IMG/VR virus record: IMGVR_UViG_2617270964_000007
Location: 1 to 21,272 of that record
Strand: one strand, 5' to 3'
DNA: 21,272 bases
From: a virus
Taxonomy: Duplodnaviria > Heunggongvirae > Uroviricota > Caudoviricetes
Positions 1 through 21,272 of this stretch are shown here, piece after piece. Below the pieces are notes generated by a model, which made no database searches, was not told the DNA's origin, and saw only the letters and a program-made list of their open reading frames with translations. Within the stretch, counting starts at the first letter, position 1. Each line of letters opens with the position of its first letter. A program made the translations under genes and the position numbers.

Positions 1-1254
1 ATGCTGGAACAAATGGGCATTGCCGCGAAGCAAGCCTCGTATAAATTAGCGCAACTCTCCAGCCGCGAAAAAAATCGCGTGCTGGAAAAAATCGCCGATG
101 AACTGGAAGCACAAAGCGAAATCATCCTCAACGCTAACGCCCAGGATGTTGCTGACGCGCGAGCCAATGGCCTTAGCGAAGCGATGCTTGACCGTCTGGC
201 ACTGACGCCCGCACGGCTGAAAGGCATTGCCGACGATGTACGCCAGGTGTGTAACCTCGCCGATCCGGTGGGGCAGGTAATCGATGGCGGCGTACTGGAC
301 AGCGGCCTGCGTCTTGAGCGTCGTCGCGTACCGCTGGGGGTTATTGGCGTGATTTATGAAGCGCGCCCGAACGTGACGGTTGATGTCGCTTCGCTGTGCC
401 TGAAAACCGGTAATGCGGTGATCCTGCGTGGTGGCAAAGAAACCTGTCGCACTAACGCGGCAACGGTGGCGGTGATTCAGGACGCCCTGAAATCCTGTGG
501 CTTACCGGCGGGTGCCGTGCAGGCGATTGATAATCCTGACCGTGCGCTGGTCAGTGAAATGCTGCGTATGGATAAATACATCGACATGCTGATCCCGCGT
601 GGTGGCGCTGGTTTGCATAAACTGTGCCGTGAACAGTCGACAATCCCGGTGATCACAGGTGGTATAGGCGTATGCCATATTTACGTTGATGAAAGTGTAG
701 AGATCGCTGAAGCATTAAAAGTGATCGTCAACGCGAAAACTCAGCGTCCGAGCACATGTAATACGGTTGAAACGTTGCTGGTGAATAAAAACATCGCCGA
801 TAGCTTCCTGCCCGCATTAAGCAAACAAATGGCGGAAAGCGGCGTGACATTACACGCAGATGCAGCTGCACTGGCGCAGTTGCAGGCAGGCCCTGCGAAG
901 GTGGTTGCTGTTAAAGCCGAAGAGTATGACGATGAGTTTCTGTCATTAGATTTGAACGTCAAAATCGTCAGCGATCTTGACGATGCCATCGCCCATATTC
1001 GTGAACACGGCACACAACACTCCGATGCGATCCTGACCCGCGATATGCGCAACGCCCAGCGTTTTGTTAACGAAGTGGATTCGTCCGCTGTTTACGTTAA
1101 CGCCTCTACGCGTTTTACCGACGGCGGCCAGTTTGGTCTGGGTGCGGAAGTGGCGGTAAGCACACAAAAACTCCACGCGCGTGGCCCAATGGGGCTGGAA
1201 GCACTGACCACTTACAAGTGGATCGGCATTGGTGATTACACCATTCGTGCGTAA
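1..1254 (+). CDS. proA: Gamma-glutamyl phosphate reductase (glutamate-5-semialdehyde dehydrogenase), complete 417 aa
   Basis: Full-length ORF starting with ATG at position 1. The translation ([16 protein letters not shown]...GDYTIRA) matches enterobacterial ProA as I recall it, including length. Chromosomal gene flanking the prophage. Confidence 0.93.
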
Positions 1255-1368
1255 ATAAAACCGGGTGATGCAAAAGTAGCCATTTGATTCACAAGGCCAT
1301 TGACGCATCGCCCGGTTAGTTTTAACCTTGTCCACCGTGATTCACGTTCGTGAACATGTCCTTTCAGG

Positions 1369-1444
1369 GCCGATATAGCTCAGTTGGTAGAGCAGCGCAT
1401 TCGTAATGCGAAGGTCGTAGGTTCGACTCCTATTATCGGCACCA
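1369..1444 (+). tRNA. thrW: tRNA-Thr, anticodon CGU, 76 nt including encoded CCA
   Basis: GCCGATATAGCTCAGTTGGTAGAGCAGCGCATTCGTAATGCGAAGGTCGTAGGTTCGACTCCTATTATCGGCACCA folds as a cloverleaf: 7-bp acceptor stem GCCGATA/TATCGGC, anticodon loop with CGT, T-arm GGTTCGACTCC. It lies downstream of proA, as thrW does in E. coli, and is a known integration site for P22-type integrases. Confidence 0.9.
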
Positions 1445-7292: not shown

Positions 7293-7541
7293 CTACTCTA
7301 TTTCTTCTTCGAATGATTTTATTAGCCGGTCAATAACATCATCTGTTTCAATATCATTTCCGTCTGATTGCTTTAATACGTCTATTGATTCTGCTGCGGT
7401 AAATTCCATCGCTGTGAGAAACTCGACAATTGCACACTCAACGACATGTCGTTCTTCATCTGTACGACATGAGATAAAAGAGCATTTAATTGCTGTTATT
7501 ACTTTTTGTTTAAGTTCTGCAGGATAATCAGTTTTTATCAT
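7293..7541 (-). CDS. Hypothetical acidic protein, 82 aa
   Basis: ATG at 7541 with GGAG 7 nt upstream. It is the first gene after the intrinsic terminator at 7555-7584. No family recognised. Confidence 0.5.
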   Translation of the reverse strand: MIKTDYPAELKQKVITAIKCSFISCRTDEERHVVECAIVEFLTAMEFTAAESIDVLKQSDGNDIETDDVIDRLIKSFEEEIE

Positions 7542-7554
7542 CGTTTACTCCGTC

Positions 7555-7584
7555 AAAAAAAATTGCCCTCACACTGGAGGGCAA
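7555..7584 (-). terminator. Rho-independent terminator in the leftward early operon (tL-like)
   Basis: On the minus strand an 8-bp stem (TTGCCCTC / GAGGGCAA, 6-nt loop) is followed by a run of 8 U. It lies between the 7687-8157 gene and downstream early genes, so N-dependent readthrough would be needed. Confidence 0.6.
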
Positions 7585-7686
7585 AGAAGATTTCCAATAA
7601 TCAGAACAAGTCGGCTCCTGTTTAGTTACGAGCGACATTGCTCCGTGTATTCACTCGTTGGAATGAATACACAGTGCTTATTCGTA

Positions 7687-8157
7687 CTAATAAAACACCC
7701 AGTTTTCTGTTTCTTGGTTGTGTCCAAAGTTATATTCAATATCTGGTGTTGATGTATCAATATTCTTCATCCCATCAACAAGAGTTGATACAACAGCCAA
7801 ATCTTGTTTGATTCTCATTAAATGGTATTTCTTCCGGCGAAATAAACTTTCAATGGCAAGTTTCTTCGTTGGGAATGCAAAAGATCTTTCTGCATTTTTT
7901 GCTACTTTCTTAATTGCATATCTATTTCTCTTTTGTTTCCATTCCTGTAACCACTGATTTGGTGCTGGTTTAAAATTAACGATCCAATACGCAGGAACCA
8001 ACCATGCATAATGCTCTGTCTGATGAAAAGCTATATATTGAAGTGCGAATATTTTGATTCCATCTTCTTCAACTGTCGCCTGGAATCTCCAGAAAACAGG
8101 CATTCCATCATGTTCAGTTTCTGATTCAGGAAAAGGTACGCTCCATGATATTGTCAT
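7687..8157 (-). CDS. Hypothetical protein, 156 aa, moron-like gene in the N-proximal region (the position occupied by ral/sieB in lambda)
   Basis: ATG at 8157 with GAGGTG upstream. The gene is visibly AT-rich compared with its neighbours and is followed by a hairpin and an intrinsic terminator. I recognise no family. Confidence 0.55.
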   Translation of the reverse strand: MTISWSVPFPESETEHDGMPVFWRFQATVEEDGIKIFALQYIAFHQTEHYAWLVPAYWIVNFKPAPNQWLQEWKQKRNRYAIKKVAKNAERSFAFPTKKLAIESLFRRKKYHLMRIKQDLAVVSTLVDGMKNIDTSTPDIEYNFGHNQETENWVFY

Positions 8158-8447: not shown

Positions 8448-8720
8448 TTACCTCGCCGTCAGTTGTTTTGATTTCCGGTAGCCTGCCGCGTAAATGGCTA
8501 CGTTTGGCAGGCAAATACTTCCGCTGCATTCATCTGCCTTCTTGCAGCGAAGGCTTCCGAGTGATGCTGCTTTATCTGCTCTGACGCAACCAGAGAGCTT
8601 TAGCGCAATCTTTCGCGCCAGTCGCTGTTCTTGCATTGCCTGTTCACGTTGAGCCTGTCTGCGTGCTCTGCGGCGATTTCTGGCGTTATCGTCAGCCAGA
8701 TATGTAATGACTACTGTCAT
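8448..8720 (-). CDS. N: N-like transcription antitermination protein with arginine-rich motif, 90 aa
   Basis: ATG at 8720 with GGAGGT upstream; the track ORF extends further 5' into the leader. It contains the arginine-rich motif NARNRRRARRQAQREQ near the N-terminus, and the ends (MTVVITY… / …YAAGYRKSKQLTAR) resemble P22 gp24 as I recall it. It is the first gene downstream of pL and nutL. Confidence 0.65.
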   Translation of the reverse strand: MTVVITYLADDNARNRRRARRQAQREQAMQEQRLARKIALKLSGCVRADKAASLGSLRCKKADECSGSICLPNVAIYAAGYRKSKQLTAR

Positions 8721-9031
8721 GTTGACCTCCGATGAAACAACTTTGGAATTGATAGTGATTGCAAAGTGGTTTCTGGCCCCTCGAACTGAGGGGCAGAAAG
8801 AGCATCTCGCCACCTAATAGGTCAATGCTCGGATCGAGAGATTTAATTAACCTCGGTTTTGAAGTTATGCATTCACATAAATCCTCCTGTTGCATGTGCA
8901 GCATTGGCTGTGTTTGGCGGCTGCATTTCGCCTATGGAATTGACTTTGGCGGTGACGCGCCGGGTGCTTATCTTCCGGTTGCCGTCGTGCAGCTGCACTT
9001 CACGTCACCCCAAAGCCAACTACTCTTTGGT

Positions 9032-9215: not shown

Positions 9216-9240
9216 AAAAAAAAAGGGGCGAATGCCCCCT
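9216..9240 (-). terminator. Rho-independent terminator at the 3' end of the repressor gene
   Basis: On the minus strand the hairpin GGGGGCATTCGCCCC overlaps the cI stop and is followed by 9 U (A-run 9216-9224 on the plus strand). It would insulate pL from repressor-gene transcription. Confidence 0.6.
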
Positions 9241-9890
9241 TATGGAAGGTTTGCTAGTTTTGCATCGACAACTACGCCGATGATTTTGCAGTTTCCGTTG
9301 ATCTCGATCATCGGATATTGTGGGTTAAGTGGTTTTAGAAACTTCCTGCCTGCATCAATAACTAACTTCTTGAAAGTTGCCTCGTTTTCTCCTTCGAGCT
9401 TTGCAACTACCAGTTTCCCGTTACGCGGCTCTACTTCAGGATCGACGAGTATTATCATTCCTTCAGGGATACTGAGACCGGCCGGAGCCGTCATTGAGTC
9501 TCCCTTCACGTCCAACCAAAACGAATCTTCTGAACAGTCTACGGTTGTATCGTACCAGTTATCTATTGCACGCTTATGATATGGTTCTACAGCTTCCATC
9601 CAGCATCCTGCGCTCACCCAGCTAATCAGAGGGTATGACCCTCTTGGATCATGCCTACTGTGATAGGCAATGTTTGAAAGACTTTCCTCTCCTTTCATCA
9701 GATAGTCAGGGGAACACTTCAACGCATTAGCCAGGGCGAGAAGATTCTCTCCATTTGGCTCTGTCTCAGAGCGTTCCCACTGAGATATGGCAACATTAGA
9801 CACGCCGACCATCTTTCCAAGTGCGGCCTGCCTGATCTTGAGTTCTTTTCTCCGAGCGCGAATGCGCTCTCCCATCAATTGAGTTTTCAT
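9240..9890 (-). CDS. c2: Phage repressor, P22 C2-type (HTH_XRE N-terminal domain plus LexA-like S24 autopeptidase domain), 216 aa
   Basis: HTH segment LKIRQAALGKMVGVSNVAISQWERSE. The C-terminal domain has the S24 catalytic motif GDSM and a downstream Lys (…VVAKLEG…). The whole protein closely resembles P22 C2 as I recall it. It is divergent from cro across operator sites. Confidence 0.9.
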   Translation of the reverse strand: MKTQLMGERIRARRKELKIRQAALGKMVGVSNVAISQWERSETEPNGENLLALANALKCSPDYLMKGEESLSNIAYHSRHDPRGSYPLISWVSAGCWMEAVEPYHKRAIDNWYDTTVDCSEDSFWLDVKGDSMTAPAGLSIPEGMIILVDPEVEPRNGKLVVAKLEGENEATFKKLVIDAGRKFLKPLNPQYPMIEINGNCKIIGVVVDAKLANLP

Positions 9891-10264: not shown

Positions 10265-10543
10265 ATGCAACTTACAAGTACTCGCAAGAAAGCGAATGCA
10301 ATTACAAGCAACATCCTAAATCGAATTGCTGTACGTGGTCAGCGAAAGGTTGCTGATGCATTAGGGATCAATGAATCGCAAATTTCGCGATGGAAAGACA
10401 GCTTTATCCCAAAGATGGCCATGCTTCTGGCTGTGCTGGAGTGGGGTGTTGAAGACAAGGAATTAGCGGAGCTGGCAAAGAAAGTAGCCATGGTGCTGAC
10501 AAAAGAAAAGCCTCAAGACTGCGGCAACAGTTTTGAGGCCTGA
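10265..10543 (+). CDS. c1: CII/C1-like transcriptional activator (lysogeny establishment), 92 aa
   Basis: ATG at 10265 with AAGGAAA upstream; the track ORF starts further upstream at an alternative codon. HTH segment QRKVADALGINESQISRWK. It occupies the cII position after cro-nutR, and 92 aa matches P22 C1 as I recall. Confidence 0.7.
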   Translation: MQLTSTRKKANAITSNILNRIAVRGQRKVADALGINESQISRWKDSFIPKMAMLLAVLEWGVEDKELAELAKKVAMVLTKEKPQDCGNSFEA

Positions 10544-16180: not shown

Positions 16181-16539
16181 ACGAATATCAGTTTGTGCTT
16201 CCATACCCGCCGTCGGTGAACACCTACTGGCGAAGACGGGGAAGCCAATACCACATCAGCGATAAAGGCCAGAAATACCGAAAAGACGTTCAGCAAATCA
16301 TCCGCCAACTTAAGTTAGACATTTTCACCAAATCACGACTCCGCATCAAAGTCATCGCAGACGTTCCAGACTCCCGCCGCCGCGACCTCGACAACATCCT
16401 GAAAGGTTTACTCGACTCCCTTATCCACGCCGGATTTGCGGAAGACGACGAGCAATTCGATGACATTCGCGTAATTCGTGGTGTGAAAGTACCAGGCGGA
16501 CGGCTTGGAATAAAAATCACCGAACTGGAGAACGTATGA
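16177..16539 (+). CDS. rusA: RusA-family Holliday junction resolvase (NinG-position endonuclease), 120 aa
   Basis: Conserved RusA segments: PPSVNTYW near the N-terminus, the catalytic-aspartate region DVPDSRRRDLDNILKGLLDSL, and the GGRLGIKITEL C-terminus. Confidence 0.85.
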   Translation: MNEYQFVLPYPPSVNTYWRRRGSQYHISDKGQKYRKDVQQIIRQLKLDIFTKSRLRIKVIADVPDSRRRDLDNILKGLLDSLIHAGFAEDDEQFDDIRVIRGVKVPGGRLGIKITELENV

Positions 16540-16724
16540 ACGCCACAATTCAAACGATACCAGAGCTTCTTATCCAGACACGAGGCAATCAGACCGAAGT
16601 GGCGAGGATGCTTTCCTGCGCAAGAGGAACAGTGCTCAAGTACAACCGAGACAGCAAAGGCGAGCGTCATGTAATAGTTAACGGCGTCCTGATGGTCAAA
16701 CAGGGCAAGAGGGGAAGACGATGA
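16536..16724 (+). CDS. ninH: NinH-like small DNA-binding protein, 62 aa
   Basis: The translation …GNQTEVARMLSCARGTVLKYNRD… resembles lambda NinH (…GNQTEVARRLKCSRGTVRKY…). It is translationally coupled between rusA and Q. Confidence 0.65.
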   Translation: MNATIQTIPELLIQTRGNQTEVARMLSCARGTVLKYNRDSKGERHVIVNGVLMVKQGKRGRR

Positions 16725-17344
16725 GACTCGAAAGCGTAGCTAAATTTCATTCGCCAAAAAGCCCGATGATGAGCGACTCACCACGGGCTACGGCTTCTGA
16801 CTCTCTTTCCGGTACTGATGTGATGGCTGCTATGGGGATGGCGCAATCACAAGCCGGATTCGGTATGGCTGCATTCTGTGGTAAGCACGAACTCAGCCAG
16901 AACGACAAACAAAAGGCTATCAACTATCTGATGCAATTTGCACACAAGGTATCGGGGAAATACCGTGGTGTGGCAAAGCTCGAAGGAAATACTAAGGCAA
17001 AGGTACTGCAAGTGCTCGCAACATTCGCTTATGCGGATTATTGCCGTAGTGCCGCGACGCCGGGGGCAAGATGCAGAGATTGCCATGGTACAGGCCGTGC
17101 GGTTGATATTGCCAAAACAGAGCTGTGGGGGAGAGTTGTCGAGAAAGAGTGCGGAAGATGCAAAGGCGTCGGCTATTCAAGGATGCCAGCAAGCGCAGCA
17201 TATCGCGCTGTGACGATGCTAATCCCAAACCTTACCCAACCCACCTGGTCACGCACTGTTAAGCCGCTGTATGACGCTCTGGTGGTGCAATGCCACAAAG
17301 AAGAGTCAATCGCAGACAACATTTTGAATGCGGTCACACGTTAG
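16721..17344 (+). CDS. Q: Late-gene antiterminator Q, lambda-type, 207 aa
   Basis: The translation MRLESVAKFHSPKSPMMSDSP… with the zinc-binding CRDCHGTG…CGRCKG region matches lambda Q as I recall. It is followed by the lambda pR'/qut/tR' sequence. Confidence 0.9.
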   Translation: MRLESVAKFHSPKSPMMSDSPRATASDSLSGTDVMAAMGMAQSQAGFGMAAFCGKHELSQNDKQKAINYLMQFAHKVSGKYRGVAKLEGNTKAKVLQVLATFAYADYCRSAATPGARCRDCHGTGRAVDIAKTELWGRVVEKECGRCKGVGYSRMPASAAYRAVTMLIPNLTQPTWSRTVKPLYDALVVQCHKEESIADNILNAVTR

Positions 17345-17386
17345 CAGCATGATTGCCACGGATGGCAACATATTAACGGCATGATA

Positions 17387-17425
17387 TTGACTTATTGAAT
17401 AAAATTGGGTAAATTTGACCCAACG
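17387..17425 (+). promoter_or_regulatory. Late promoter pR' with overlapping qut site (Q-utilisation)
   Basis: -35 TTGACT (17387-17392), a 17-nt spacer and -10 TAAATT (17410-17415), with the transcription start near 17422. The sequence is essentially the lambda pR' region. Confidence 0.75.
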
Positions 17426-17615
17426 ATGGGTTAATTCGCTCGTTGTGGTAGTGAGATGAAAAGAGGCGGCGCTTACTACCGATTCCGCCTAGTTGGTCAC
17501 TTCGACGTATCGTCTGGAACTCCAACCATCGCAGGCAGAGAGGTCTGCAAAATGCAATCCCGAAACAGTTCGCAGGTAATAGTTAGAGCCTGCATAACGG
17601 TTTCGGGATTTTTTA
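17422..17615 (+). ncRNA. Lambda-type 6S RNA (short pR' transcript terminated at tR' in the absence of Q), about 194 nt
   Basis: The distance from the predicted pR' start to the end of the tR' U-run is 194 nt, the known size of lambda 6S RNA. The two track ORFs over this region (17456-17650, 17489-17773) are therefore not called as coding. Confidence 0.6.
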
Positions 17616-17616
17616 T
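17556..17616 (+). terminator. tR' intrinsic terminator
   Basis: A long imperfect hairpin AATCCCGAAAC…GTTTCGGGATT is followed by TTTTTTAT (U-run 17609-17616). Confidence 0.7.
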
Positions 17617-18020
17617 ATCTGCACAACAGGTAAGAGCATTGAGTCGATAATCGTGAAGAGTTGGCGAGCCTGGTTAGCCAGTGCTCTTTCCGTTGTGCTG
17701 AATTAAGCGAATACCGGAAGCAGAACCGGATCACCAAATGCGTACAGGCGTCATCGCCGCCCAGCAACAGCACAACCCAAACTGAGCCGTAGCCACTGTC
17801 TGTCCTGAATTCATTAGTAATAGTTACGCTGCGGCCTTTTACACATGACCTTCGTGAAAGCGGGTGGCAGGAGGTCGCGCTAACAACCTCCTGCCGTTTT
17901 GCCCGTGCATATCGGTCACGAACAAATCTGATTACTAAACACAGTAGCCTGGATTTGTTCTATCAGTAATCGACCTTATTCCTAATTAAATAGAGCAAAT
18001 CCCCTTATTGGGGGTAAGAC

Positions 18021-18344
18021 ATGAAGATGCCAGAAAAACATGACCTGTTGGCCGCCATTCTCGCGGCAAAGGAACAAGGCATCGGGGCAATCCTTGCGTT
18101 TGCAATGGCGTACCTTCGCGGCAGATATAATGGCGGTGCGTTTACAAAAACAGTAATCGACGCAACGATGTGCGCCATTATCGCCTGGTTCATTCGTGAC
18201 CTTCTCGACTTCGCCGGACTAAGTAGCAATCTCGCTTATATAACGAGCGTGTTTATCGGCTACATCGGTACTGACTCGATTGGTTCGCTTATCAAACGCT
18301 TCGCTGCTAAAAAAGCCGGAGTAGAAGATGGTGGAAATCAATAA
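18021..18344 (+). CDS. S: Class I holin S with dual start (S107 antiholin / S105 holin)
   Basis: The translation [20 protein letters not shown]… carries the Met1-Lys2-Met3 dual-start motif and three hydrophobic segments. It matches lambda S. Confidence 0.9.
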
Positions 18345-18804
18345 TCAACGTAAGGCGTTCCTCGATATGCTGGCGTGGTCAGAGGGAACTGATAACGGAC
18401 GACAGAAAACCAGAAATCATGGTTATGACGTCATTGTAGGCGGAGAGCTATTCACTGATTACTCCGATCACCCTCGCAAACTTGTCACGCTAAACCCAAA
18501 ACTCAAATCAACAGCAGCCGGTCGCTATCAGCTTCTTTCCCGTTGGTGGGATGCCTATCGTAAGCAGCTTGGCCTGAAAGACTTCTCTCCCAAAAGCCAG
18601 GACGCTGTGGCATTGCAGCAGATTAAAGAGCGTGGCGCTTTACCGATGATTGATCGCGGTGATATTCGTCAGGCTATCGACCGTTGCAGCAATATCTGGG
18701 CTTCACTTCCGGGGGCTGGTTATGGTCAGTTCGAGCATAAGGCTGACAGCCTGATTGCAAAATTCAAAGAAGCTGGCGGAACGGTCAGAGAGATTGAGGT
18801 ATGA
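18328..18804 (+). CDS. R: Endolysin R (lytic transglycosylase), 158 aa
   Basis: The translation [26 protein letters not shown]… matches the lambda R family, with the catalytic Glu in the WSEGTD context. It overlaps the S 3' end as in lambda. Confidence 0.9.
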
Positions 18805-19268
18805 GCAGAGTAACCGCGATTATTTCCGCTCTGGTTATCTGCATCATCGTTTGCTTGTCATGGGCTGTTAATCATTACCGTGATAATGCAATCGCCTACA
18901 AAGAACAGCGCGATAACAAGGCCAGTGAACTGGAGAAGGCGAACGCCACCATTACTGACATGCAGCAACGCCAGCGTGCTGCTGATGCACTCGATGCTAA
19001 ATACACGAAGGAGTTAGCTGATGCGAAAGCTGAAAATGATGCTCTTCGGCGCAAGCTTGATAATGGTGGCAGGGTGCTCGTCAAAGGAAAATGCCCTGTG
19101 CCATCGTCAGCCGAAACCTCCGGCGCCTCCGGCATGGGCAATGATGCCACCGTCGAACTCTCTCCAGTTGCTGGACGAAACGTTCTCGATATCCGGGACG
19201 GAATTATCCGCGACCAAACAGCACTGAGAACGCTTCAGGAATACATTAGGACGCAATGCCTTCGATGA
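18801..19268 (+). CDS. Rz: Spanin inner-membrane subunit Rz (i-spanin), 155 aa
   Basis: N-terminal transmembrane helix ([18 protein letters not shown]) followed by a coiled-coil periplasmic domain. The N-terminal half is lambda-like and the C-terminal third diverges from lambda Rz as I recall it. Confidence 0.85.
19021..19227 (+). CDS. Rz1: Spanin outer-membrane lipoprotein Rz1 (o-spanin), embedded in the +1 frame of Rz
   Basis: Signal peptide with lipobox (…LIMVAGC) followed by a proline-rich mature region ([14 protein letters not shown]). It lies entirely within Rz in a different frame. Confidence 0.7.
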
Positions 19269-20157: not shown

Positions 20158-20452
20158 CGGCAGTACAGCGAAACAACCCAAGCCAGTAAGTGGGGAAATA
20201 ACACTGGCAGCCACTGAAAGATGAACCTCCTGCATTATGGCAAAAAAGATTCTTTGTGGTGGCGGACTGATGGAAAGACATCGGTTATTGCAGAGACCAT
20301 TCAATGAGTGGTCTCGACAATGGCTTATACCCTACACGGGATAACTTAACTGATATCCCCACAAGCGGATAAAGAGGTCCCTCAATGTCAGGAATCTACT
20401 TTTAGTCCTAGTAATGATGAACTAGATATCAGTTGAGTCGCTTGGGTGGTGA

Positions 20453-20661
20453 TTACGATTCTGCTTCAAACTCAGAAATTAGTTGATGAACACGTTCAGT
20501 ATATGATGGGTTAGAACCTAGAAACTCTTCCACTGTCTGAATGGTTTCATCACCCTCCCATTCAAAATGGCTCACAGGCGACGAATGACCAACCCTGACT
20601 TGGTAGGAGCCATTGTCCAATTTGTCCAGGAATATATAAGTTTCATTATCATGACCTGTAT
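20453..20661 (-). pseudogene. 3' fragment (about 69 codons) of an unidentified minus-strand gene, with the IS1 end abutting its upstream boundary
   Basis: An open frame without an in-window start, …HYHTGHDNETYIFLDKLDNGSYQVRVGHSSPVSHFEWEGDETIQTVEEFLGSNPSYTERVHQLISEFEAES, ends at the TAA complementary to 20453-20455. It runs open up to the IS1 terminal inverted repeat at 20662 and continues into IS1 sequence, so any 5' part must lie beyond the IS1 copy. Confidence 0.4.
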
Positions 20662-20676
20662 GGTAATGACTCCAAC

Positions 20677-21180
20677 TTATTGATAGTGTTTTATGTTCAG
20701 ATAATGCCCGATGACTTTGTCATGCAGCTCCACCGATTTTGAGAACGACAGCGACTTCCGTCCCAGCCGTGCCAGGTGCTGCCTCAGATTCAGGTTATGC
20801 CGCTCAATTCGCTGCGTATATCGCTTGCTGATTACGTGCAGCTTTCCCTTCAGGCGGGATTCATACAGCGGCCAGCCATCCGTCATCCATATCACCACGT
20901 CAAAGGGTGACAGCAGGCTCATAAGACGCCCCAGCGTCGCCATAGTGCGTTCACCGAAAACGTGCGCCACAACTGTCCTCCGTATCCTGTCATACGCGTA
21001 AAACAGCCAGCGCTGACGTGATTTAGCACCGACGTAGCCCCACTGTTCGTCCATTTCCGCGCAGACGATGACGTCACTGCCCGGCTGTATGCGCGAGGTT
21101 ACCGACTGCGGCCTGAGTTTTTTAAATGGCGGAAAATCGTGTTGAGGCCAACGCCCATAATGCGGGCGGTTGCCCGGCAT
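20677..21180 (-). CDS. insB: IS1 transposase InsB reading frame (expressed as the InsAB' fusion by -1 frameshift)
   Basis: The translation …[53 protein letters not shown]… is the IS1 InsB sequence. Confidence 0.88.
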
Positions 21181-21272
21181 CCAACGCCATTCATGGCCAT
21201 ATCAATGATTTTCTGGTGCGTACCGGGTTGAGAAGCGGTGTAAGTGAACTGCAGTTGCCATGTTTTACGGCA
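21099..21272 (-). CDS. insA: IS1 InsA (C-terminal portion; 5' end beyond the window)
   Basis: Reverse-complement translation gives …[18 protein letters not shown] ending at the TAA complementary to 21099-21101. The A6C frameshift window TTTAAAAAAC is present on the minus strand near 21118-21127. Confidence 0.7.

Follow-up and report, generated by a model that had tools for sequence, protein, structure and literature searches.

A lambda-type Q-dependent late-gene regulatory cassette with its 6S leader in a predicted Escherichia prophage with P22-like immunity

The DNA analysed in this study (the window) is a stretch of 21,272 nucleotides which opens with a 417-codon ORF (1-1254), named proA according to the RefSeq annotation of E. 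coli. The gene for tRNA-Thr(CGU), thrW, was identified at 1369-1444 and was the only match in the whole window in an Rfam scan at gathering thresholds. thrW is the classic attachment site of P22-like phages. Host proA and thrW (window 1-1444) were observed to lie directly next to the prophage at its integrase end, where the integrase ORF (minus strand, 54% identical to P22 Int) follows the tRNA. Past the integrase, a typical lambdoid early-left operon leads into the immunity region, after which come the genes for replication, the nin region, Q and the lysis genes. On the basis of proA, the tRNA, the integrase and this lambdoid gene order, the window is predicted to be a prophage in an Escherichia-type chromosome at proA-thrW. 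At most 64% of the window was covered by any phage or complete E. coli genome, in patchy matches of 94-97% identity which have the appearance of ordinary lambdoid mosaicism. The matches to phages and E. coli prophages end at 20359, and an IS1-like element (97-98% identical to plasmid IS1B copies) runs from approximately 20640 to 21272, so that the window ends inside it; a 167 amino acid ORF on its minus strand (20677-21180) lies under the IS1 transposase annotated in plasmid IS1B copies.

The immunity region resembles that of phage P22. The C2 repressor, encoded at 9240-9890 on the minus strand, shares 92% amino acid identity with P22 C2, the corresponding values are 95% for Cro (which also has a P22_Cro Pfam match), 82% for C1 and 90% for the helicase, and the oR/PRM/PR region between c2 and cro differs from P22 at 4 of approximately 90 bases. 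The N-like antiterminator (8448-8813, minus strand; Pfam N_peptide) is 35% identical to P22 gp24 and 97-100% identical to the N proteins of HK140, HK620, mEp213 and HK630. DNA homology to P22 starts only at nutL, and the P22-like parts are approximately 83% identical to P22 at the DNA level. An earlier note on this DNA had described its early control as P22-type, a description which, judging from these comparisons, appears to be true of immunity (repressor, Cro, C1 and operators) but false of early antitermination, N being of the HK140/HK620 type.

The Q antiterminator gene (16721-17344, plus strand) is predicted to encode a protein of 207 amino acids of the Q-lambda family (PF03589 in Pfam, E = 6e-58; PMC9388147), which is identical to lambda Q at all 207 positions, the three nucleotide differences between the genes being synonymous, and 97% identical to P22 gp23, the product of gene 23. 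The stop codon of Q ends 78 nt ahead of the late transcription start. The first late genes under Q control, S (with a dual start), R and Rz, were assigned by homology to lambda at 18021-19268 (plus strand), with protein identities to lambda of 99%, 98.7% and 62%, respectively, and a holin Pfam match (PF05106). An exact TTGC-N6-TTGC box is present within Q on the minus strand (17008-17021), as the putative equivalent of the anti-Q promoter activated by CII or C1 (lambda paQ, P22 a23). The motif occurs at 4 sites in the whole window against 2.0 expected, which is non-significant by itself, and the one line of support for the box in Q is positional: it maps onto the annotated P22 C1-binding site (37473-37486) of the anti-gene-23 promoter. 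Given this coincidence, a CII/C1-dependent antisense brake on Q is probably also present. A second such box was observed at 10298-10311 (minus strand), inside the CII/C1-like ORF and on the opposite strand to it, as would be expected for pRE.

The late region was compared without gaps with lambda (NC_001416), for which the window coordinate equals the lambda coordinate minus 27165. Colinearity with lambda sets in where Q starts, at window 16721 (lambda 43886), and holds to at least 18435, which is lambda 45600 and the limit of the stretch compared; by blastn it runs on to approximately 19048. Mismatches between 16721 and 18435 are confined to three in Q, one at 17420, one at 17662 and three in S and R. 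Homology to lambda stops abruptly upstream of Q, and the lambda record marks a recombination boundary at exactly the Q start. The stretch 17387-17616 corresponds to lambda 44552-44781 at 229 of 230 bases and matches E. coli lambda lysogens with E = 2e-114; a 731-nt query around it showed 99.7% identity to lambda as well as to derivatives of lambda made in the laboratory. The proposal of the earlier note that this stretch is the lambda pR'-qut-6S-tR' unit is thus borne out by a lambda-identical Q protein and by an alignment without substantial divergence.

A promoter scan of 16500-18400, in which 2.4 sites were expected by chance, returned a single sigma-70-like site on the plus strand, consisting of the -35 hexamer TTGACT (17387-17392) and the -10 hexamer TAAATT (17410-17415) separated by a 17-bp spacer. 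One such site is not above chance, and its significance therefore rests on identity to lambda: the hexamers and, as had been claimed, their spacing are the same as in the published lambda PR' sequence, TTGACTtattgaataaaattgggTAAATTtgactcA (PMC4604602). Because the window matches this published string, +1 was assigned to A17422, and the annotated start of the P22 late RNA (37887) maps onto the same base, providing independent support for the start site. The Q-binding element region in the spacer, TATTGAATAAAATTGGGTAAA (17393-17413, plus strand), is identical to lambda and is annotated as 'lambda Qut site' in HK/mEp phage records; the element is known to lie between the -35 and -10 hexamers (PMC4914094; PMC9388147). 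Within it the window has the lambda alleles -28A and -18A, while most of 114 colinear relatives carry -28T and -18G. The start and the sigma-dependent pause element AACGAT (+1 to +6), together with the discriminator-like triplet GGG, occupy 17422-17430 on the plus strand and are also identical to lambda, where AACGAT at +1 to +6 directs a sigma70-dependent pause at +16/+17 (PMC4005639; element definitions from PMC4005639 and PMC4604602). By identity with the lambda positions (PMC4005639), the pause at which Q is loaded would be expected at 17437-17438 (+16/+17, plus strand).

The sole difference from lambda within the unit is at position -2, where T44585 of lambda is replaced by C at 17420. 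This is the sixth base of a hexamer, TTGACC (lambda TTGACT), at 17415-17420 on the plus strand (-7 to -2), which matches the lambda hexamer at 5 of 6 bases and is separated from the pause element by one base. The sixth base is the least conserved position of the -35 motif. We take the hexamer to be the -35-like element for repositioned sigma region 4 (Nickels et al. 2002). In lambda, sigma region 4 is known to shift onto a -35-like site which lies just upstream of the pause element (PMC9388147). Among 114 colinear relatives 87 carry C and 27 carry T at -2, and in a search of IMG/VR a 36-nt pattern occurred with C in 94 contigs and with the T of lambda in 30, so C is the majority natural allele. 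When contigs representing one genome per species were scanned for an exact match to the C variant, a single contig was returned, from a MAG labelled Collinsella which is probably mis-binned. Because of its frequency, the T to C change was assumed to be neutral.

The leader transcript, corresponding to lambda 6S RNA, runs from 17422 to 17615 on the plus strand and is identical to lambda 44587-44780 at all 194 positions. The pR'-to-tR' distance of 194 nt given in the earlier note is therefore correct, its end point of 17616 being one base too far. The leader is predicted to fold with a minimum free energy of -66.6 kcal/mol (z = -3.15), and the published 6S Northern probe matches exactly at 17492-17526. 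A permissive Rfam scan of 17350-18050 returned no match at E <= 1, which says nothing against 6S because lambda 6S RNA has no Rfam family. The intrinsic terminator tR' (17556-17614, plus strand) consists of an irregular hairpin with its core at 17558-17608, followed by U6 at 17609-17614. The hairpin at 17556-17610 has a predicted free energy of -26.9 kcal/mol (z = -6.26), a stability reached by none of 200 shuffled sequences. The U6A following the hairpin spans +188 to +194, its last base being 17615, and termination at lambda tR' has been mapped to +193 (PMC4914094). tR' escaped a consensus terminator scan, its hairpin being long, irregular and closed by a 10-nt loop; the four sites which the scan did list are irrelevant. 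Between tR' and S, a G+C-rich hairpin (17868-17900, plus strand; GGCAGGAGGU...ACCUCCUGCC, then GUUUUG; -29.8 kcal/mol, z = -3.06) was also observed, which is identical in lambda and may be an extra terminator of the late leader.

Taken with the Q gene, the unit is almost certainly a lambda-type Q-dependent late-gene regulatory cassette. The lambda Q switch is the best-studied antitermination switch in biology, and what was found here is a textbook element which is already known. From their sequence all of the cis elements (the -35 hexamer, the spacer with its Q-binding element, the -10 hexamer, AACGAT with GGG, and tR') appear intact, and we infer, by analogy with lambda, that the cassette would be functional in this prophage; the activity of each element is likewise ascribed on the basis of lambda biochemistry. 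Following the mechanism described for lambda Q (PMC9388147; PMC4914094; PMC4005639), sigma70 RNA polymerase would start constitutively at pR' (+1 = 17422) and would pause at +16/+17 through renewed binding of sigma region 2 to the -10-like AACGAT (+1 to +6). Without Q, transcription would terminate at tR' and release the 194-nt 6S RNA, leaving the lysis and structural genes off in the lysogen. On induction, Q (16721-17344) would be produced from the early rightward transcript, bind its element between the -35 and -10 hexamers and contact the paused complex, with sigma region 4 shifting onto TTGAC(C) at -7 to -2. Together with NusA, Q would then become a stable subunit narrowing the RNA-exit channel, and the polymerase would read past tR', as well as the terminators after it, to transcribe S, R, Rz and the genes beyond.

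Comparison with known systems places the cassette closest to the lambda late region (J02459/NC_001416, 43886-44781), which has the same Q (100%), unit (229/230) and transcript (194/194), the same distance to S and, apart from one further mismatch (17662), the same downstream leader. Lambda differs in having T at -2 and in that NinI precedes Q, which it does not here; furthermore, the immunity, replication and integration modules of the window are P22-like and unlike lambda, and its nin region is also unlike that of lambda. The late control region of P22 (NC_002371, 37186-37945) shares the Q family (97%), the same promoter (Plate/PR') and AACGAT, with 2 differences in the Q-binding element, and is homologous to the window as far as +23. 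Beyond +23 the P22 sequence turns into a short leader of no relation, which has a terminator of its own at approximately +31 to +59; the 194-nt body of 6S and the tR' hairpin of lambda are both missing from P22. The part of the cassette which is specifically lambda-like is therefore limited to the 6S body and tR'. Accordingly, of the contrast which the earlier note drew between lambda-type late and P22-type early control, the presence of the lambda unit stands, but the contrast itself is weaker than it had been made out to be, as P22 shares the Q family, promoter and loading site. The Q21 and Q82 cassettes (PF06530 and PF06323, compared with PF03589 for the Q of the window) have the same architecture and a terminator-resistant Q-loaded polymerase, but differ in their unrelated Q folds, in the architecture of the binding element and in their pause positions (+25 in phage 82) (PMC9388147; PMC4914094).

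The lambda late unit was found in 439 of 5426 complete E. coli genomes (approximately 8%), and in 413 of these it is nearly full-length. In one natural E. coli isolate a 100%-identical 230-nt unit lies inside a P22-like prophage. Among the 23 IMG/VR relatives which reach far enough upstream, the repressor that accompanies the unit is a P22-like C2 (at least 90% identical) in three and is less than 70% identical to it in 17. The combination of a lambda unit with P22-like immunity thus looks, at the sequence level, like ordinary lambdoid mosaicism, and the word 'retained' in the earlier note goes beyond what can be demonstrated. The block from -40 to +195 (or +219) is conserved in 121 loci and is followed by several unrelated segments, and tR' thus marks a mosaic joint. 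In a second search for relatives, anchored on the 6S body, three loci (L134, L140 and L141) were found to encode longer Q-lambda-family proteins (250-308 amino acids) with other promoters and spacers upstream of the same AACGATGGG and 6S body, with a recombination joint at approximately -3; the module made up of Q and its binding element therefore reassorts with that of the pause element, leader and terminator. In nine loci (L131, L136, L138, L142, L143, L145, L146, L149 and L151) an insertion of approximately 680 bp, encoding a 163 amino acid HNH/AP2-type homing-endonuclease-like ORF, is present at approximately +9, in the Q-loading region of an otherwise lambda-type late promoter, where it separates the 6S body from a variant pause element (AAGAAT).

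Two ORFs overlie the unit, both of which had been called almost certainly non-coding in the earlier note, and our analysis agrees. One, of 64 amino acids (17456-17650, plus strand), is 100% identical to lambda orf-64, which the lambda reference record lists as a hypothetical protein. Of the 121 relatives with enough sequence, 58 have ATA in place of the ATG start, 101 have a stop at codon 28 owing to T instead of A at +116, and six lack one nucleotide at +128; the full 64-codon form is kept in just 15, and in most the 3' end is replaced by recombination joints at +196 or +220, which lie inside the ORF. In addition, orf-64 was non-essential in a lambda CRISPRi screen (PMC10695390). The other ORF, of 50 amino acids with a TTG start, lies antisense across the promoter (17373-17525, minus strand) and is absent from the annotation of lambda and of the RefSeq genomes. 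It remains open in most relatives, a point in favour of coding, but all four of its common polymorphisms alter the amino acid; the case for its being non-coding is good, if less decisive than that for orf-64. No Pfam match was obtained for either ORF, and PGAP annotates no gene between Q and the holin gene in the E. coli genomes examined. We consider it highly improbable that either ORF encodes a real small protein, and the lambda reference gene orf-64 is itself very probably not a genuine gene. The 822 nt that separate Q from the holin gene are accordingly best annotated as pR', qut, 6S RNA and tR' and not as two hypothetical proteins.

The near-lambda segment from Q to R adjoins P22-like immunity, as it would in a chimeric assembly or in a lambda-P22 hybrid made in the laboratory, such as lambda immP22. 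This explanation was rejected and is barely credible: the prophage lies at proA-thrW with an integrase only 54% identical to that of P22, N is of the HK620 type, the nin region is unlike that of lambda, the P22-like DNA is only approximately 83% identical to P22, and the same combination occurs both in a natural E. coli isolate, with a 100%-identical unit, and in three of the 23 metagenomic relatives. A more serious consideration is whether the intact cassette sits in a defective prophage, where only the short terminated RNA would be made and Q-dependent read-through would be futile. The IS1-like element begins approximately 1.4 kb downstream of Rz, after a Rha-like gene and before the expected terminase genes, and runs off the window, and the matches to phages and E. 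coli prophages end shortly before it, at 20359; on sequence grounds the element may interrupt the late operon ahead of the packaging genes. Against this, the Q, S and R frames are intact and near-identical to lambda, the ORFs for the repressor, Cro, replication and integrase are uninterrupted, and a single intergenic IS need not be inactivating. A defective prophage was on balance judged unlikely.

The leader itself is less variable than its surroundings. In 95 colinear loci, which were picked by an exact match at -15 to +21, nucleotide diversity from +22 to +194 was 0.0126, approximately 6-fold below the 0.082 at four-fold degenerate sites of Q; in the promoter-proximal quarter of Q the value was 0.074, and when the four-fold sites were resampled 10000 times no value as low as that of the leader was reached. 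The 6S leader is thus more constrained, or younger, than the adjoining neutral sites. A conserved 6S fold beyond tR' was considered and rejected: 16 segregating sites were paired and 13 unpaired (P = 0.68 for an unpaired bias), and compensatory changes in the 6S body were absent among the 95 colinear loci.

Lambda 6S RNA has been reported to be enriched with Hfq, to give bands of approximately 194 and 121 nt, to be present in lysogens and to be joined in chimeras to several RNAs of E. coli and to one early RNA of lambda, the Hfq binding and approximately 121-nt processing having been reported for lambda only (bioRxiv 10.1101/2024.10.31.621285). Northern probes for all three of the Hfq-associated lambda RNAs (PreS, 6S and LPR2) map to the window. 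The PreS/LPR1 sRNA locus (7555-7677, minus strand) was identified by the published probes and by identity to lambda: an island of 121 nt (7557-7677) in an otherwise non-lambda early-left operon has 99.2% identity to the ea10-ral spacer of lambda, both PreS/LPR1 probes match exactly (7583-7616 and 7612-7643, minus strand), and the locus ends in a G+C-rich hairpin (7584-7563) followed by U8, a terminator of the tL2a type. A permissive Rfam scan of 7450-7750 returned just chance-level matches to SraG and RyhB. The LPR2 probe target (17651-17685, plus strand), approximately 35 nt downstream of tR', matches the reverse complement of probe P844 at 34 of 35 bases. Its one mismatch, T at 17662 (C in lambda), and the change at 17420 are the sole differences from lambda in the stretch between Q and S. 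The LPR2 target is kept in 17 of 105 relatives with a 6S body, none of which carries T at 17662.

These observations raise the question of a second function for the 194-nt leader, as a trans-acting, Hfq-bound regulatory RNA under selection, which would be compatible with its role in antitermination. The association of lambda 6S with Hfq and its RNA chimeras are in favour of such a function, as are the low diversity of the leader and its conservation despite the broken ORF within it. A further argument comes from the analogous leader of Stx phages: the Hfq-binding sRNA StxS derives from the Stx-phage pR'-tR' leader and matches the lambda leader in position and logic (a late promoter that is constitutive, termination soon afterwards and an abundant short RNA in the lysogen), but that system differs in its Q family and promoter and has a 258-nt spacing, no sequence similarity to lambda 6S has been reported, and a regulatory role is proven for StxS and not for lambda 6S (PMC7547250). 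Lambda 6S is without a published function or validated target, a conserved structure is unsupported by the segregating sites, and the low diversity, in loci selected by their match at -15 to +21, could also reflect the recent recombinational spread of one leader module. A second function as a regulatory RNA is accordingly put forward tentatively, at rather less than an even chance. We are a little more doubtful still of the wider reading in which the 6S leader, far from being a passive spacer, would be a portable module of non-coding RNA under selection which travels with PreS and LPR2; this is suggested because diversity is approximately 6-fold low, loss of the ORF is tolerated, the leader is joined to different Q and promoter modules, and PreS and LPR2 are also kept.

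The conservation of 6S and its co-occurrence with PreS and LPR2 fit, without proving, the proposal that antitermination leaders double as sRNAs. Were the leader indeed such a portable module, a lambda-type set of sRNAs would move across lambdoid and P22-like phages regardless of their immunity type.
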